A DNA stretch of 6,740 bases, from IMG/VR virus record IMGVR_UViG_2740892212_000008. One strand, given 5' to 3'. Shown here in pieces: positions 664-6,740 of the stretch (within the stretch, counting starts at the first letter, position 1; every line of letters begins with the position of its first letter). The notes beneath the pieces are model-generated. The model was not told the origin of the DNA and did not search any database. It was given only the letters and a program-made list of their open reading frames with translations. A program made the position numbers and the translations under genes. The stretch comes from a virus. Its lineage: Duplodnaviria > Heunggongvirae > Uroviricota > Caudoviricetes.

Positions 664-743
664 CCTGGCCTGAGGCATTCACAACGGTAGGAATTGCGAT
701 GGCGGTGACGCTGGTGGTGTATTCGATTTGCCGCTGGGGATAA
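660..743 (+). CDS. small hydrophobic peptide, 27 aa (MTWPEAFTTVGIAMAVTLVVYSICRWG), possibly a membrane peptide
   Basis: ATG 660-662 overlaps the upstream stop, suggesting translational coupling. One predicted transmembrane-like segment. Too short for the ORF track; a chance ORF cannot be excluded. Confidence 0.3.
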   Translation: MTWPEAFTTVGIAMAVTLVVYSICRWG

Positions 744-750
744 AAACGGT

Positions 751-778
751 TTGCGGGAAAAGGAGAGTTAAGTAGAAT
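751..778 (+). promoter_or_regulatory. candidate sigma70 promoter for the hok mRNA
   Basis: -35 TTGCGG (751-756), 16-nt spacer, -10 TAGAAT (773-778). Predicted start near 785, about 113 nt upstream of the mok-like start, which fits hok-family mRNA layout. Confidence 0.35.
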
Positions 779-780
779 TG

Positions 781-796
781 CTGCGGGTGCTTGAGG
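781..796 (+). promoter_or_regulatory. 5' tac-like element of hok mRNA, complementary to the 3' element at 1160-1175
   Basis: The reverse complement of 781-796 (CCTCAAGCACCCGCAG) matches 1160-1175 (CCTCAACGCACCCGCA) with a single-nucleotide bulge. This is the 5'/3' fold-back arrangement typical of hok-family mRNAs. Confidence 0.5.
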
Positions 797-839
797 CTAT
801 CTGTCTCAGGCATGAACACCAAAAGGCAGATAGAGAAAA

Positions 840-906
840 GCCCCAGTTAACATTACGCGTCCGGCAAGACGCTTAACATTAATCTGAGGCCATATCTATG
901 CTCTAC
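840..906 (-). ncRNA. putative Sok-like antisense RNA covering the mok translation-initiation region (boundaries approximate)
   Basis: Expected by analogy with hok/sok loci. A weak minus-strand promoter is present (-35 TTGCCT at plus 941-936, 17-nt spacer, -10 TAACCT at plus 918-913). No clean terminator was found, so this is speculative. Confidence 0.2.
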
Positions 907-1110
907 ACACGTAGGTTAGCCTCTTACGTGCCGAAAGGCAAGGAGAAGCAGGCTATGAAGCAGCAAAAGGCGATGCTTATCGCCCTGATCGTCATCTGTT
1001 TAACCGTCATTGTGACGGCACTGGTAACGAGGAAAGACCTCTGCGAGGTACGACTCCGAACCGGCCAGACGGAGGTCGCTGTCTTCACAGCTTACGAACC
1101 TGAGGAGTAA
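898..1110 (+). CDS. mok-like reading frame: in-frame 19-codon N-terminal extension of hok (70 codons)
   Basis: ATG 898 is in frame with hok and shares its stop, as in chromosomal mokC/hokC and mokB/hokB pairs. GAGG lies 10 nt upstream. Confidence 0.4.
   Translation: MLYTRRLASYVPKGKEKQAMKQQKAMLIALIVICLTVIVTALVTRKDLCEVRLRTGQTEVAVFTAYEPEE
955..1110 (+). CDS. hokD: Hok/Gef family type I toxin, 51 aa, HokD/RelF-like
   Basis: Translation MKQQKAMLIALIVICLTVIVTALVTRKDLCEVRLRTGQTEVAVFTAYEPEE is recognised as Hok/Gef family: one transmembrane segment and the conserved RKDLCEV...TGQTEVAVF core. Stop TAA 1108-1110. Confidence 0.9.
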   Translation: MKQQKAMLIALIVICLTVIVTALVTRKDLCEVRLRTGQTEVAVFTAYEPEE

Positions 1111-1159
1111 GAGACCAGGCGAGGGAGAAATCCCTCGCCACCTCTGATGAGTCAGGCAT

Positions 1160-1175
1160 CCTCAACGCACCCGCA
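1160..1175 (+). promoter_or_regulatory. 3' fbi-like element of hok mRNA, partner of 781-796
   Basis: Complementary to 781-796 (see above). Lies between a 9-bp stem/GAAA-loop hairpin (1118-1139) and the terminator. Confidence 0.5.
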
Positions 1176-1178
1176 CTT

Positions 1179-1205
1179 AACCCGCTTCGGCGGGTTTTGT
1201 TTTTT
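1179..1205 (+). terminator. rho-independent terminator at the end of the hok transcript
   Basis: Stem AACCCGC / GCGGGTT with TTCG loop, followed by TTTTGTTTTTT. Confidence 0.65.
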
Positions 1206-1463
1206 CCTGGCATTCTGGTTTACAATTCGCACGTCAGCCTNNNNNNNNNNNNNNNNNNNNNNNNNNNNNNNNNNNNNNNNNNNNNNNNNNNNNNNNNNNN
1301 NNNNNNNNNNNNNNNNNNNNNNNNNNNNNNNNNNNNACGCGGATACGAGATTAAGAAAGCCCTCAGCCTCGATTATCGTCACTGGATAATCTATGTCAGG
1401 CTCCCTTATTCCGAACGCCCACCGCGCCCATCCCGCACATACCAGCAACGGATCTGGAGGTAA
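1197..1463 (+). CDS. possible small ORF in the position of Qin-prophage rem, interrupted by the N run; start undetermined
   Basis: A frame ends at TAA 1461-1463, two nt before the preferred GTG start of the DUF968 gene. Only the last 42 codons are visible after the N run and their composition is not convincingly coding. Confidence 0.2.
   Translation: MFFPGILVYNSHVSXXXXXXXXXXXXXXXXXXXXXXXXXXXXXXXXXRGYEIKKALSLDYRHWIIYVRLPYSERPPRPSRTYQQRIWR
1241..1336. other. run of 96 N: unresolved or masked sequence
   Basis: Directly visible. Any ORF call crossing it is unverifiable. Confidence 0.95.
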
Positions 1464-2894: not shown

Positions 2895-3446
2895 ATGATA
2901 TATCCGGAAATTACAGGCAAAAGCGGCGAACATTTACGCCTGAACACGCTGGAAGCAGTCTGGATCCAGGGGAAATTACGGATGTGGGGGCGGTGGTCGT
3001 ATATCGGTGGGGGTAAATCCGGAAATATGTTTAACCGGTTACTGGTTTCGAAAAAGCTGACGAAAACAGCAGTTAATGAGGTTTTACGCAGAATGAAGAA
3101 ATCCGGGCTGGAAAAACCGGAACTTGAGGCATTTTTTCGGGATATGACAAGAGGAAAGCAGAAGAGCTGGTTGTCACATTGTACAGACACAGAGGCGTTG
3201 ATTATTGATCGCGTTATCAGTGAGGTGCTTGGGGAATATCCCGGGCTAATCAATGTTCTCCGGCAAAGGTACGAAGGACGGGGAATGAGCAAACTGAACA
3301 TGGCCGAAAGGTTAAATGCAGATCATCCTGATTGGTCGTTGGTTACGTGCAGACGCCGAATTGATCAATGGTTGGGGGTATCTGAATTTATGTTATATGC
3401 CCCCATGCGCATGGCTTTTGTTACAGAGAAAAATGTTGCAAACTGA
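2895..3446 (+). CDS. putative late-gene antiterminator Q
   Basis: Position is diagnostic: directly after rusA and directly before terminator structures and late-region cargo. 183 aa from ATG 2895; the in-frame GTG 2883 overlaps the rusA stop as an alternative start. Family assignment is from context and weak recall only. Confidence 0.6.
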   Translation: MIYPEITGKSGEHLRLNTLEAVWIQGKLRMWGRWSYIGGGKSGNMFNRLLVSKKLTKTAVNEVLRRMKKSGLEKPELEAFFRDMTRGKQKSWLSHCTDTEALIIDRVISEVLGEYPGLINVLRQRYEGRGMSKLNMAERLNADHPDWSLVTCRRRIDQWLGVSEFMLYAPMRMAFVTEKNVAN

Positions 3447-3526
3447 TCAATAAACTGCTTCAATCCGTATAAGCTTCGCAAAGCTGTATCGCGAGGCGAA
3501 ACGCAAGTTTTTTTCGCACAAGGAAG
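3436..3526 (+). promoter_or_regulatory. candidate late promoter (PR'-like) and Q-utilisation region
   Basis: -35-like TTGCAA at 3436-3441 inside the Q 3' end; -10-like hexamers TTCAAT (3459-3464) and TATAAG (3468-3473). Exact promoter not resolved. Region carries nested inverted repeats and a weak hairpin plus T7 at 3496-3514. Confidence 0.3.
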
Positions 3527-3547
3527 CCACCGGAAGGTGGTTTTTTT
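3527..3547 (+). terminator. rho-independent terminator, tR'-like
   Basis: Stem CCACC / GGTGG with GGAA loop, followed by seven T (3541-3547). Confidence 0.6.
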
Positions 3548-3670
3548 GTGTCCGCGATATACAGTAGCGCAATAAATTCGCTGGTGGTTATTAATACCGT
3601 TCTTTCAGCTTGCTGGCTTTTTCGACAAGAGTTATTGGTGTGTCACGTTAACCGGAAAAGGGAAAAAGAC

Positions 3671-3868
3671 ATGCTAAAACAGCAGGATATGACAGAAACC
3701 GCCAGAGTGGTGTTTAATGAATTAAGCGTTACCGAACCGGCGACAGTCGGGGAGATAGCGCAGAATACTTACCTTTCACGCGAACGCTGCCAGTTAATAC
3801 TGACCCAGCTGGTTATGGCGGGTCTGGCAGACTATCAGTTCGGTTGTTACAGACGCCTTCCGCAGTGA
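3671..3868 (+). CDS. small protein, 65 aa, winged-helix-like (PapI/FaeA-like pattern), putative DNA-binding regulator
   Basis: ATG 3671 with AAGGGA 7 nt upstream. The segment TVGEIAQNTYLSRERCQLILTQLVMAGL resembles a helix-turn-helix recognition region. The ORF-track version starts at GTG 3548, next to the terminator T-run, and is less likely. Confidence 0.5.
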   Translation: MLKQQDMTETARVVFNELSVTEPATVGEIAQNTYLSRERCQLILTQLVMAGLADYQFGCYRRLPQ

Positions 3869-3878
3869 AGGCTTTTTT
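3855..3878 (+). terminator. terminator-like hairpin overlapping the small ORF stop codon
   Basis: Stem GCCTTC / GAAGGC with 6-nt loop, followed by TTTTTT. Confidence 0.4.
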
Positions 3879-3895
3879 ATTTGTGGTAAATGGGC

Positions 3896-4018: not shown

Positions 4019-5068
4019 ATGCTTAATACTGTAAAAATATCCAGTTGTGAGTTAATCAACGCCGACTGCCTGGAATTTATCCGGTCGTTACCCGAAAATT
4101 CTGTTGACCTGATAGTCACGGACCCGCCGTACTTTAAAGTGAAGCCTGAGGGCTGGGATAACCAGTGGAAGGGCGACGATGATTACCTGAAGTGGCTGGA
4201 CCAGTGTCTGGCGCAGTTCTGGCGGGTGCTGAAACCTGCCGGAAGTCTTTACCTGTTCTGTGGTCATCGCCTGGCATCTGATATCGAAATCATGATGCGT
4301 GAACGCTTCAGTGTGCTGAACCATATTATCTGGGCGAAGCCGTCCGGACGCTGGAACGGATGCAACAAGGAAAGCCTGCGGGCGTATTTCCCCGCCACAG
4401 AGCGCATTCTGTTCGCGGAACATTATCAGGGGCCGTATCGCCCGAAAGATGCCGGGTATGAGGCGAAGGGCAGGGAACTGAAACAGCATGTGATGGCCCA
4501 GCTGATTTCTTACTTTCGTGATGCACGCGCGGCCCTGGGGATAACGGCAAAACAGATTGCAGATGCCACAGGAAAGAAAAACATGGTGTCGCACTGGTTC
4601 AGTGCCAGTCAGTGGCAGCTACCGAACGAAAGCGATTATCTGAAATTACAGTCGCTGTTTGCCCGGGTGGCAGAAGAGAAACATCAGCGGGGAGAACTGG
4701 AAAAGTCCCATTACCAACTGGTCAGCACATACAGTGAGCTGAACCGGCAGTATATGGAACTGCTGAGTGAATATAAAAATTTGCGGAGGTATTTCGGTGT
4801 GACGGTGCAGGTGCCGTACACCGATGTGTGGACGTATAAACCGGTGCAGTACTATCCAGGGAAACATCCGTGCGAAAAACCGGCAGAAATGCTGCAGCAG
4901 ATAATCAGCGCAAGTAGTCGTCCTGGTGATCTGGTTGCGGATTTTTTCATGGGGTCGGGTTCAACGGTAAAAGCGGCGATGGCACTGGGGCGTCGTGCGA
5001 TTGGTGTTGAGCTGGAGACCGGACGTTTTGAGCAGACAGTCAGGGAAGTTCAGGATTTAATCGTTTGA
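4019..5068 (+). CDS. DNA methyltransferase, beta-class amino-MTase (probably N6-adenine), orphan
   Basis: 349 aa with catalytic motif IV DPPY near the N-terminus (SVDLIVTDPPYF) and SAM-binding motif I near the C-terminus (DLVADFFMGSGST). This order is the beta-class arrangement. No restriction-endonuclease-like ORF is adjacent. Confidence 0.9.
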   Translation: MLNTVKISSCELINADCLEFIRSLPENSVDLIVTDPPYFKVKPEGWDNQWKGDDDYLKWLDQCLAQFWRVLKPAGSLYLFCGHRLASDIEIMMRERFSVLNHIIWAKPSGRWNGCNKESLRAYFPATERILFAEHYQGPYRPKDAGYEAKGRELKQHVMAQLISYFRDARAALGITAKQIADATGKKNMVSHWFSASQWQLPNESDYLKLQSLFARVAEEKHQRGELEKSHYQLVSTYSELNRQYMELLSEYKNLRRYFGVTVQVPYTDVWTYKPVQYYPGKHPCEKPAEMLQQIISASSRPGDLVADFFMGSGSTVKAAMALGRRAIGVELETGRFEQTVREVQDLIV

Positions 5069-5117: not shown

Positions 5118-5193
5118 GGCCCTTTAGCTCAGTGGTGAGAGCGAGCGACTCATAATCGCCAGGTCGCTGGTTCAAATCCAGCAAGGGCCACCA
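5118..5193 (+). tRNA. ileZ: tRNA-Ile2 (anticodon CAU, lysidine type), phage-encoded
   Basis: 76 nt with canonical cloverleaf: acceptor GGCCCUU/AAGGGCC, anticodon loop CUCAUAA, T-loop UUCAAAU, 3' ACCA. Very close to E. coli tRNA-Ile2. Confidence 0.85.
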
Positions 5194-5200
5194 TCACATA

Positions 5201-5277
5201 CCGCCATTATCTCATCAGGAAAGAGCGCCAGCCTTCGAAGCTGGTTGCGCGGAGTTCGGGTCCCCGAAGGCGGTCCA
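5201..5277 (+). tRNA. tRNA-Arg-like (anticodon UCG), possibly degenerate (argN position)
   Basis: Anticodon stem-loop CCAGC-CUUCGAA-GCUGG and a D-loop with A14 and GG are present. Acceptor stem has one mismatch, T-stem one mismatch, and T-loop is UUCGGGU (G where A58 is expected). Confidence 0.45.
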
Positions 5278-5290
5278 TTATCTGTATCCT

Positions 5291-5367
5291 GCGTTGTTAG
5301 CTCAGCCGGACAGAGCAATTGCCTTCTAAGCAATCGGTCACTGGTTCGAATCCAGTACAACGCGCCA
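5291..5367 (+). tRNA. argO: tRNA-Arg (anticodon UCU), phage-encoded
   Basis: 77 nt with canonical cloverleaf: acceptor GCGUUGU/ACAACGC, anticodon loop CUUCUAA, T-loop UUCGAAU, 3' GCCA. Confidence 0.85.
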
Positions 5368-5407: not shown

Positions 5408-5604
5408 AAATGTCTCACAATTCAGACGGTTGACAGTTGTCTGTTTTGCGGGGAGTTTGTTAAAAGAAACTGGCATGGTGAATCCCCCTGTGCGGAGGGG
5501 CAATCAGCGAGTAGGTATATGGGATAATCGTGGATTCAGGTGCTGGTACTGAATTCACCGGGAGGCACCCGGCACCATGCAATGGCACATAGCGCCACTC
5601 TCCA

Positions 5605-5628
5605 GCCCCTCTCCGGAGGGGCTTTCTT
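5605..5628 (+). terminator. terminator-like hairpin, plus strand
   Basis: Stem GCCCCTC / GAGGGGC with TCCG loop, followed by TTTCTTAT. Confidence 0.4.
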
Positions 5629-5634
5629 ATGGAC

Positions 5635-5856: not shown

Positions 5857-6740
5857 ATGGCATTTAAACACTATGATGTTGTCAGGGCGGCGTCGCCGTC
5901 AGACCTTGCGGAAAAGCTGACACACAAACTGAAAGAGGGCTGGCAGCCATACGGCGGACCGGTTGCCATTACGCCGTACACACTGATGCAGGCGGTGGCT
6001 ATTGAAGGAGAGCCACAGGTCGGCCCTTCATCTGAGCCGGATTGGTACTACGTCATCGTACTGGCCGGGCAGTCCAATGCCATGGCTTACGGTGAAGGGC
6101 TTCCGCTGCCGGATTCATACGATGCTCCGGATCCGCGCATTAAACAGCTGGCGCGCCGCAGTACAGTGACGCCGGGCGGGGCTGCCTGCAGATATAACGA
6201 TATTATTCCGGCTGACCACTGTCTGCATGATGTGCAGGATATGAGTACGCTGAATCATCCGAGGGCTGACCTGAGCAAAGGGCAGTACGGCTGTGTCGGT
6301 CAGGGTTTACATATTGCCAAAAAACTGCTCCCGTATATCCCGAATAACGCGGGGATCCTGCTGGTACCATGCTGTCGTGGTGGTTCGGCATTTACCCAGG
6401 GCGCGGAGGGGACATTCAGCGAGTCCACGGGGGCCAGTCAGGATTCGGCACGCTGGGGGGTGGGCAAGCCGTTATATCAGGATCTGATTTCCCGCACAAA
6501 AGCGGCATTGCAGAAAAATCCCAAAAACGTTCTGCTGGCCGTCTGCTGGATGCAGGGTGAGTTTGACATGAGCGCCGCCACCCACGCACAGCAACCTGCG
6601 CTGTTTACAGCCATGCTGACACAGTTTCGTGCTGACCTCTCCGTGTTTAACGCGCAGTGCCATGGTGGCAGTGCTGCAGATGTGCCGTGGGTTTGTGGTG
6701 ACACGACGTATTACTGGAAAAATACATACGCTACCCAGTA
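5857..6740 (+). CDS. nanS: prophage sialate O-acetylesterase (NanS-p type) with N-terminal DUF1737-like region; 3' end beyond the window
   Basis: ATG 5857 with GGGAGG 4 nt upstream. Frame is open to the window end (294 codons, verified by hand; absent from the ORF track because it lacks a stop). Contains the SGNH/SASA nucleophile block VIVLAGQSNAMAYG. Confidence 0.85.
   Translation, partial: MAFKHYDVVRAASPSDLAEKLTHKLKEGWQPYGGPVAITPYTLMQAVAIEGEPQVGPSSEPDWYYVIVLAGQSNAMAYGEGLPLPDSYDAPDPRIKQLARRSTVTPGGAACRYNDIIPADHCLHDVQDMSTLNHPRADLSKGQYGCVGQGLHIAKKLLPYIPNNAGILLVPCCRGGSAFTQGAEGTFSESTGASQDSARWGVGKPLYQDLISRTKAALQKNPKNVLLAVCWMQGEFDMSAATHAQQPALFTAMLTQFRADLSVFNAQCHGGSAADVPWVCGDTTYYWKNTYATQ

Follow-up and report, generated by a model that had tools for sequence, protein, structure and literature searches.

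Does the region at positions 751-1207 of the window, by which we mean the whole 6,740-nucleotide stretch of phage DNA analysed here, hold merely a toxin gene of the hok family, or the toxin together with its full regulatory apparatus? A first-pass annotation had proposed a complete hok/mok module with a HokD/RelF-like toxin, and the comparisons bore this out; every feature it listed turned up at its given position or only a few bases away. We conclude, with a probability of roughly 0.9, that an intact type I toxin-antitoxin locus, a hok/mok/sok of the HokD/HokW subgroup, occupies the region. The Rfam sok model (RF01794) matched positions 785-960 of the plus strand over its full length with 117.1 bits against a gathering score of 59. 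The Hok protein scored 79.3 bits with Pfam HOK_GEF (cutoff 22) and 49 bits with the NCBIfam Hok models, which is below their curated cutoff of 73, and PHROG 251, 'MokW-like host killing', matched with 114 bits. At the DNA level, window positions 700-1182 are 92.8% identical to mokW/hokW/sokW of the Stx2 phages 933W and Sp5 (VT2-Sakai).

The locus lies in the nin region of a lambdoid E. coli prophage, upstream of the genes for DUF968, RusA and a Q-like antiterminator. The prophage neighbours are DUF968, RusA, DUF1133/antiterminator Q, a DNA methylase and three tRNAs. All ORF-supported genes assigned in the window are on the plus strand, and within the hok locus we infer sok as the sole minus-strand transcription unit. 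Of 5426 complete E. coli genomes, 3767 had a match over 80% or more of the region, with a median of 2 and a maximum of 12 hok copies per genome; the copy of strain D1 is 100% identical and is named hokD in RefSeq. The novelty implied by the first-pass annotation was thus not sustained, as the 92.8% identical 933W/Sp5 locus was annotated in 1999 and its function shown in 2021. Publications already cover the family, the RNA switch, the occurrence in lambdoid prophages and the truncation by relBE in K-12, and thousands of genomes carry the locus as an annotated feature. As a discovery it is of little weight: the locus is real and complete but ordinary. Its use is as an element-by-element map of the untruncated hokD arrangement, and for each element we could establish the presence, integrity, conservation and predicted pairing described below.

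The hok toxin gene (955-1110, plus strand) encodes 51 amino acids of the HokD type, with the tetranucleotide TACG (1093-1096) within the Tyr47 codon, and is preceded by a Shine-Dalgarno (SD) sequence, AAGGAG at 940-945, read from the sequence. HokD was among the previously characterized toxic controls in 10.1101/2025.08.07.668861. The in-frame mok-like extension that had been suggested corresponds to an ORF of 70 codons (898-1110, plus strand) that shares the frame and the stop codon of hok. Its SD, GAGG at 886-889, lies 8 nt upstream of the mok ATG, and its start region is the target of the antisense RNA.

The putative gene for this antisense RNA, Sok, occupies positions 835-906 of the minus strand. 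In this RNA of about 72 nt, the first 15 nt would form a single-stranded 5' tail that is the complement of the mok start region, followed by a long hairpin and a U run; its predicted fold has an energy of -29.7 kcal/mol (z = -5.26). When SokW of 933W (positions 1636-1706 of that locus, L003) was mapped onto the window it ran from 906 to 836, which coincides with the earlier guess of an antisense RNA on the minus strand at about 840-906. The putative sok promoter (913-941, minus strand) has a -35 box TTGCCT (941-936), a 17-nt spacer and a -10 box TAACCT (918-913), with no difference from 933W/Sp5 in either hexamer or in the spacer. In Sp5, mutation of the sok -10 box (primers YO-421/422) abolished the antitoxin effect (PMC8621323). 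As a separate observation, the segment 890-915, comprising the Sok 5' tail and the mok start, was the most variable Sok-complementary part among HokD/W-type copies, also between copies within one genome. This hints at selection for antitoxins that do not cross-react, a weaker reading than the transcriptional interference considered below.

A putative hok/mok promoter was read from the sequence at 751-778 of the plus strand, with a -35 box TTGCGG (751-756), a 16-nt spacer and a -10 box TAGAAT (773-778). Its aligned counterpart in an R1-type plasmid hok locus, the -10 box TATGAT, is equally far from the +1 G. Both promoters, that of hok and that of sok, are weak matches and were missed by a consensus scan of positions 600-1240; they were instead placed by homology to R1 and hokW. 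The sole match returned by that scan, at 873-902 on the plus strand, was regarded as chance. On the basis of the R1 +1 homology and the -10 spacing, transcription probably starts at G785.

At this position begin both the Rfam sok model and tac (785-796, plus strand; GGGUGCUUGAGG), the 5' end of the hok mRNA. Its counterpart is the fold-back inhibitory element fbi (1160-1172, plus strand; CCUCAA-C-GCACCC), which is complementary to tac with a bulged C at 1166. The first-pass annotation had described a 16-nt element at 781-796 complementary to 1160-1175 with one bulge. The bulge stood, while the helix came to 15 bp rather than 16 because base 781 has no partner: positions 782-790 pair with 1167-1175 (9/9), 791-796 pair with 1160-1165, and C1166 is the single bulge. 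As the transcript probably begins at G785, only the 12 bp between 785-796 and 1160-1172 would lie inside the RNA. When the transcript was folded, as had been proposed, the long-range 5'/3' helix was present in both the minimum free energy (MFE) and the centroid structures of 785-1205 (z = -7.15), with tac/fbi pair probabilities of 0.97-1.00, and forbidding the pairing cost about 12 kcal/mol.

The pairing between tac and fbi is kept through compensatory changes in an alignment of 39 hok loci from several enterobacterial genera. For example, the pair 4/411 is U:A in 24 loci and C:G in 12, and loci of Photorhabdus, Pantoea and others have full tac/fbi complementarity with different sequences. The duplexes of single loci were calculated as comparisons of 14 nt with 26 nt, since duplex prediction on long flanks carried the pairing too far to be informative. 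MAFFT misaligned the second half of the helix in the Photorhabdus clade, which has no bulge, and this accounts for the lower formal pair counts in columns 8, 10 and 12; the per-sequence duplexes showed that the pairing is preserved in this clade despite the alignment register. The reading of the 5'/3' complementarity as a chance inverted repeat or a DNA-level feature, such as a recombination site, with no RNA structure is effectively refuted, for although chance does produce short inverted repeats (541 nt contained seven pairs of 8 nt or more), only 3 of 5000 shuffled 3' UTRs bound the 5' 12-mer as well as the real sequence, fbi is the best plus-strand partner of this 12-mer across the whole 6.7-kb window, the compensatory substitutions extend over the 39 loci, the extension 782-784/1173-1175 outside the predicted transcript is unconserved in other subgroups, and R1 has a homologous arrangement in its tac/fbi stem, which has been defined by experiment (PMC9841398).

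All the boxes expected of a hok leader are present. Conservation of ucb and dcb, for which an alignment to other hok loci had been suggested, was found across the 39 loci. The ucb or anti-SD box (838-844, plus strand; AAGCCCC) is paired with 785-792 in the Rfam consensus structure, which represents the leader in its open form, and its alignment columns 53-59 are invariant and column 60 nearly so. The mok SD on the plus strand (columns 102-105) is likewise invariant in the 39 loci. The dcb (919-923, plus strand; GCCUC) forms an invariant alignment block and pairs in the Rfam consensus structure with GAGGC at 886-890; this SD/dcb stem recurred when the tac/ucb pairing was enforced. In the MFE structure of the full-length RNA, base pairs join G840-C842 to G888-C890 and C844 to G886. 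They take up all mok SD bases except A887, and the ensemble likewise gave the four bases unpaired probabilities of 0, 1, 0 and 0. The closed form, with ucb on the mok SD, is thus the predicted fold of the full-length RNA. For the 3'-truncated RNAs, the open form with tac/ucb pairing lay 2.3-2.9 kcal/mol above the MFE: RNAfold of 785-1158 and of 785-1141 did not return it as the MFE structure, and the mok SD was still paired. The truncated RNA had as its MFE structure the so-called metastable 5' hairpin, and the switch is therefore not claimed as predicted.

Downstream of hok, a hairpin with a 9-bp stem and a GAAA loop was found at 1118-1139 (plus strand) exactly as the first reading of the sequence had it, the stem being a perfect inverted repeat of 1118-1126 and 1131-1139. 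In other loci the stem is kept with base changes on both arms, e.g., GGCGGGGAG / TCCCCGCC. By analogy with the 3' stem-loop of R1 (PMC9841398), this hairpin is expected to be the protective 3' end of a trimmed, translatable mRNA. The terminator also proposed there was recovered by a terminator scan as an intrinsic terminator at 1179-1205 (plus strand), with a 7-bp GC-rich stem and a UUCG loop (1179-1196) and then a U run. Weak Rfam matches of isrK (27.8 bits at 1119-1200, where the gathering score is 50) and of rsmX over the 3' UTR were rejected as below threshold, and the hairpin and the terminator account for both.

How these elements would work together, that is, the transcription and processing of the RNA, the toxicity of its product and the biological role, we infer from homologous systems. 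By homology to R1, the weak constitutive promoter at 751-778 would give rise to a stable mRNA, about 420 nt long, with its start at G785. In the full-length RNA, tac would pair with fbi and ucb would hold the mok SD, and this closed RNA would be neither translated nor bound by the antisense RNA. Slow 3' exonucleolytic trimming would then strip off the terminator and fbi and halt at the 1118-1139 hairpin, after which pairing of tac with ucb would free the translation start of mok. As long as the short-lived Sok (906 to about 835, minus strand) is present, it would bind the mok start region and the duplex would be destroyed. Once Sok has decayed, mok would be translated and, coupled to it, hok, and the 51-amino-acid Hok peptide would damage the inner membrane.

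Judging from hokW-sokW, the most likely role of such a locus would be the release of the toxin when Sok synthesis stops at prophage induction, with the killing of cells that lose the prophage as a possible side effect. For the hokW-sokW of Sp5, the one prophage homologue studied by experiment, the effect found was faster lysis and a doubled phage release after induction, and not abortive infection (PMC8621323). This role may not transfer to the nin-region copy, since hokW sits elsewhere in 933W. The position in the nin region could itself wire the module to induction by transcriptional interference. As the genes are on the plus strand and sok is on the minus strand, antiterminated early rightward transcription towards Q would meet the weak sok promoter head-on; this could shut off Sok, and the stored hok mRNA would then be translated. 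We put this forward as a speculation that is rather improbable. If true, it would explain the induction-triggered action of Hok and supply the step left open in the hokW-sokW study, i.e., the disappearance of SokW on induction.

That the module serves mainly in anti-phage abortive infection or prophage addiction, as the first-pass annotation had considered, appears unlikely. A search of the PADLOC defence-protein library gave no match for Hok at E ≤ 0.01, hok was not enriched beside defence systems in 10.1101/2025.08.07.668861, and the closest studied homologue aids the release of its own carrier phage (PMC8621323).

The locus could also be intact in sequence and physiologically silent, a selfish or decaying passenger that neither kills, defends nor helps lysis, and this we regard as doubtful. 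In its favour, the same genomes often contain copies in decay: K-12 hokD is cut off at 941, one locus lacks tac (L013), a hokC-type locus has lost fbi (L021) and three are frameshifted (L054, L066 and L057). The multiplicity of the copies (median 2, up to 12 per genome) points the same way, as does the inactivity in post-segregational killing assays that Pedersen and Gerdes reportedly found for chromosomal hok loci such as hokA, hokB and hokC (summarised in 10.1101/2025.08.07.668861). Against silence, all regulatory elements and both ORFs of the window locus are intact, the elements are under purifying and compensatory constraint across genera, and the 92.8% identical hokW-sokW gives measurable phenotypes (PMC8621323).

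Among known systems, the closest is hokW-sokW, shown by experiment to be a toxin-antitoxin system of type I, in part dependent on RNase III and Hfq (PMC8621323). It has in common with the window the in-frame mok/hok layout, the position and length of Sok, the sequences of tac and fbi, and the same insertion of 16-18 nt, which makes the Sok hairpin longer than in the Rfam consensus. The two differ at the C-terminus of Hok (FTAYEPEE in the window, FVDYESEK in HokW), at residue 34 (L in the window, I in HokW) and at about seven positions in the Sok 5' tail and mok start (890-910). Downstream of fbi, 933W has unrelated sequence in place of the window's terminator. The positions differ as well: the window copy belongs to the nin region and is read with the early rightward genes, whereas that of 933W occupies the far right end, where its strand is the opposite of that of the late genes.

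The hok/sok (parB) locus of plasmid R1 has the same order of elements, i.e., promoter, tac, ucb, mok SD, Sok target, dcb, hok SD, hok, 3' hairpin, fbi and terminator. The tac is GGGUGCUUGAGG in the window and GGCGCUUGAGG at +1 of R1, and from +1 to the last base of fbi there are 388 nt in the window and 391 nt in the R1-type plasmid copy. The +1 numbering of this copy was checked against G4/C5/T6 and A70/G71/C72 of PMC9841398; it is an R1-type variant and not R1, because its mok SD lies about 4 nt before G105/A106 of that study. The R1 Hok protein is only about 44% identical, a figure given for HokW (PMC8621323). Further differences are the frame of mok, which is that of hok in the window and out of frame in R1 (as read from the R1-type sequence), the longer Sok hairpin of the window, and the carrier, a prophage in the window and a plasmid for R1. 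Activation of the mRNA by slow 3' processing, RNase III cleavage of the Sok duplex and Hok toxicity are established for R1 and partly so for hokW-sokW (PMC9841398, PMC8621323). The chromosomal hokC/gef, hokA, hokB and hokE loci belong to the same family and have the same set of elements, with protein identities of about 80% or lower. The hokC-type loci share tac and fbi with the window, with G-U variants. The chromosomal loci differ in having no insertion in the Sok hairpin, and IS elements or point mutations have disrupted those of K-12, as in the loss of fbi mentioned above.

The comparison with K-12, where hokD lies behind relBE in the Qin prophage, shows what the window copy has retained. 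The two toxins are identical in 50 of 51 residues, with I34L as the sole substitution, and the DNA is 96.6% identical over 941-1204, a stretch that runs from the hok SD through the ORF, the GAAA hairpin and fbi to the terminator, the last being identical. The downstream neighbourhood, with DUF968 (ydfU) and a Q-like antiterminator, is also common to both. Upstream of 941, everything is replaced by relBE in K-12, with the breakpoint just inside the hok SD box. Since the homology begins only at 941, K-12 lacks the hok promoter, tac, ucb, the mok start and sok. The relBE-hokD operon arrangement was not found in the window, which has no relBE and has a full hok leader upstream of 941; the toxin belongs to the same allele group. 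Pedersen and Gerdes reportedly noted a hokD 'rearrangement' in 1999. K-12 hokD is co-transcribed with relBE (PMC3598666), and PMC6379469, citing Ramisetty and Santhosh (2016), describes an ancestral hokD of 70 codons cut to 51 by the integration of relBE. The idea that the window shows the ancestral arrangement is already published, and the breakpoint at 941 is confirmed. The view that K-12 hokD lacks the regulatory elements holds for the 5' half, but not for the GAAA hairpin, fbi and terminator; K-12 hokD still holds an orphan fbi element and the terminator.

The hok/mok/sok locus at 751-1207 was correctly observed in all essentials by the first-pass annotation, since the ORFs, the 5'/3' pairing, the hairpin and the terminator were all found. 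The ORF list contains a 51-codon hok ORF (955-1110) and, in the same frame, a 70-codon ORF (898-1110), in agreement with the claimed mok extension. The repeat finder returned the 9-bp stem of the 1118-1139 hairpin (1118-1126/1131-1139), and the terminator scan placed a GC-rich stem of 7 bp at 1179-1196, with a U run after it. The 5'/3' complementarity with one bulge was also recovered, but not at the proposed length of 16 nt: the repeats 782-790/1167-1175 (9/9) and 791-808/1148-1165 combine to 15 base pairs, 782-796 with 1160-1175, with C1166 bulged and base 781 without a partner.

The long-range pairing was present in the folded mRNA. RNA 785-1205 paired the 5' element tac (785-796) with the 3' fold-back element fbi (1160-1172) in the MFE and centroid structures alike, with pair probabilities of 0.97-1.00, and the fold was far more stable than those of shuffled sequences (z = -7.15). 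Holding fbi unpaired cost approximately 12 kcal/mol. Among 5000 shuffled 3' UTRs, only 3 bound the 5' 12-mer equally well, and the fbi site was its top plus-strand partner across the whole window. Related loci (n = 64) were collected from one genome per species, and the alignment comprised 39 full-length loci from Escherichia, Shigella, Kluyvera, Pseudocitrobacter, Photorhabdus, Pantoea and others. Pair 4/411 was U:A in 24 of these 39 loci and C:G in 12. Sequence by sequence, GGGCGCUUGAGAC was paired with a bulge-less (G)UCUCAAGCGCCC in Photorhabdus loci, GGGCGCUUGAGG with CCUUAAGCGCCC in a Pantoea locus, and GAGGUU with AACCUC in a further locus. The tac/fbi pairing was gone in loci known or seen as decayed, such as the hokC-type copy L021.

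The Rfam sok family RF01794 gave a full-length plus-strand match at 785-960 (117.1 bits, gathering score 59). Because this model extends across the hok SD and ATG, it describes the hok mRNA leader, with Sok inside it on the opposite strand. Its consensus structure pairs tac with the anti-SD box ucb (785-792 with 838-844) and the SD with dcb (GAGGC 886-890 with GCCUC 919-923). Folding of the full-length RNA instead predicts that three of the four mok SD bases (GAGG, 886-889) pair with the ucb box; the closed form, in which ucb holds the mok SD, is the one described for plasmid R1 (PMC9841398). RNA folding without the 3' end put the open form 2.3-2.9 kcal/mol above the MFE, and the MFE structure of this trimmed RNA contained the so-called metastable 5' hairpin. 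The modeled thermodynamics are compatible with a switch and do not by themselves predict switching. Alignment to an R1-type plasmid locus placed the -10 box TAGAAT (773-778) and the +1 G (785) at homologous positions. Numbered from this +1, the plasmid copy has the 5' marks G4/C5/T6 and A70/G71/C72 at their published positions, and its mok SD is placed about 4 nt before the published G105/A106, which makes this copy an R1-type variant. The distance between +1 and the fbi end is 391 nt in the plasmid copy, compared to 388 nt in the window.

An antisense RNA had been guessed on the minus strand at about 840-906, and this agrees with the SokW RNA annotated in phage 933W, which maps onto 906 to 836 on that strand. 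The Sok RNA of the window is predicted to leave its first 15 nt unpaired, as a 5' tail complementary to 892-906 including the mok ATG, and to continue with a long hairpin and then a U run. Judged by sequence, its putative promoter consists of TTGCCT (941-936) and TAACCT (918-913) on the minus strand, 17 nt apart; both hexamers are identical in 933W/Sp5. In Sp5, replacement of exactly this -10 box with primers YO-421/422 abolished protection (PMC8621323). Among 11 HokD/HokW-type loci, 890-915 (Sok 5' tail and mok start) and the tac-hairpin loop 805-830 were the most variable parts of the leader, with a majority-base fraction of about 0.8 versus 0.97-1.0 in the Sok hairpin, and the rest of the leader was 95-100% conserved. 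Three copies within one genome, that of Shigella flexneri SFBU1023 (L004, L006, L011), differ at 890-915. Selection that keeps co-resident Sok RNAs from cross-reacting might account for this variability.

The K-12 HokD protein is identical to the window Hok at 50 out of 51 residues. As stated in the first-pass annotation, hokD follows relB and relE in K-12, in the Qin prophage, and is devoid of the 5' elements; the supposed loss of the 3' elements was not borne out. The DNA homology is confined to 941-1204 (96.6% identity) and, as it starts only at 941, K-12 hokD has no promoter, tac, ucb, mok start or sok, while it keeps the hok SD, the ORF, the GAAA hairpin, an orphan fbi and the terminator. 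Its downstream genes are of the same kind as in the window (DUF968, Q-like). Pedersen and Gerdes (1999) reportedly traced the inactivation of hokD to a major rearrangement. The module has sharp mosaic boundaries: at 941, where K-12 homology begins and relBE replaces the left part, and at about 1176-1182, where 933W homology stops just after fbi and the terminator is replaced. According to a statement in PMC6379469 citing Ramisetty & Santhosh 2016, relBE integration cut a 70-codon ancestral hokD to 51 codons. The hok Tyr47 codon lies within a TACG motif (1093-1096) that almost every aligned locus retains (TTACGAA). TACG is the TadA A-to-I editing motif, and Tyr to Cys recoding has been reported for K-12 hokC, hokD and hokE mRNAs (PMC5630033).

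The 6.7-kb window belongs to a lambdoid Escherichia coli prophage. Predicted-protein family matches identified DUF968 (1393-2514), RusA (2527-2886), DUF1133/antiterminator Q (2895-3446), a DNA methylase (4019-5068) and a DUF1737 plus sialate O-acetylesterase protein starting at 5857. E. coli strain D1 has a prophage 100% identical to 700-1240, in which RefSeq names the small ORF hokD. A run of 96 N (1241-1336) lies just 3' of the hok terminator; from position 9542 of L001 onward, where the identity has ended, the D1 sequence is unlike the window sequence beyond the gap, so the two prophages diverge there. GC-rich hairpins followed by T runs at 3480-3550, including GCCACCGGAAGGTGG with its T run (about 3525-3547) just 3' of the Q-like gene, and at 3855-3880, after a small ORF (3671-3868), may be tR'-type terminators acted on by Q. 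The methyltransferase matched the PADLOC Type II MTase model PDLC03265 over its full length (552.8 bits), and it looks like an orphan phage methylase, as no restriction-enzyme gene adjoins it within the window. ARAGORN found three phage-borne tRNA genes (5118-5367; anticodons CAT, TCG, TCT), the middle one scoring just 33.8 bits with the Rfam tRNA model. RefSeq annotates their D1 homologues as Ile, Arg and Arg, and the first is therefore probably a lysidine-modified tRNA-Ile. Between this cluster and the DUF1737/esterase gene, the sRNA family STnc100 matched strongly over its full length (5444-5634, plus strand, 137.7 bits, gathering score 47), ending in a terminator-like hairpin (5604-5623).

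By analogy with R1 hok/sok, the mRNA would be stable, folded back and inert, and slow 3' trimming, stopping at the 1118-1139 hairpin, would let it refold and expose the mok start. The exposed start would then either be paired by Sok, with degradation of the mRNA, or allow translation of Hok coupled to mok. As to the role of the locus, the studied homologue hokW-sokW promotes host lysis by its own phage (PMC8621323). R1 hok/sok on a multicopy plasmid modestly inhibited T4, as cited in PMC8621323. Chromosomal hok loci failed PSK tests, as summarized in 10.1101/2025.08.07.668861, and Hok matched none of the PADLOC defence models. With low confidence in the order, we favor a helper of induction-linked lysis and/or an addiction module, then a silent passenger, then a dedicated defence system.

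Loci of this kind are widespread. A match to 700-1240 was found in 4959 out of 5426 complete E. coli genomes, with at least 80% covered in 3767 of the 5426, at a median of 2 and a maximum of 12 places per genome. Many co-resident copies among the related loci are decayed, with a deletion in tac (L013), loss of fbi (L021) or a frameshifted or truncated hok ORF (L054, L055, L057, L066). Some near-identical HokD loci come from short contigs or MAGs labeled Veillonella, Xanthomonas, Acinetobacter, Haemophilus and 'Candidatus Scatousia' (L008, L012, L041, L047, L053; 93-100% protein identity), and another from an 'Actinobacillus phage' record (H32, 96.6% DNA identity). For these, contamination with E. 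coli or mis-binning seems likelier than a true host. A 2025-26 preprint catalogued 44,248 Hok homologues, enriched in prophages (10.1101/2025.08.07.668861), and PHROG 251, 'MokW-like host killing', matched with 114 bits. The locus is real and correctly identified, and its kind is common, annotated and experimentally characterized. HokW is toxic and located at the inner membrane (Takada et al. 2021, PMC8621323), and sokW counteracts it, partly via RNase III and Hfq; SokW disappears upon RecA-dependent induction, and deletion of hokW-sokW delayed growth arrest and halved phage release (PMC8621323). The mokW/hokW/sokW genes of 933W, annotated already in its 1999 GenBank record, and those of VT2-Sakai/Sp5 are 92.8% identical to the window locus over 483 nt.
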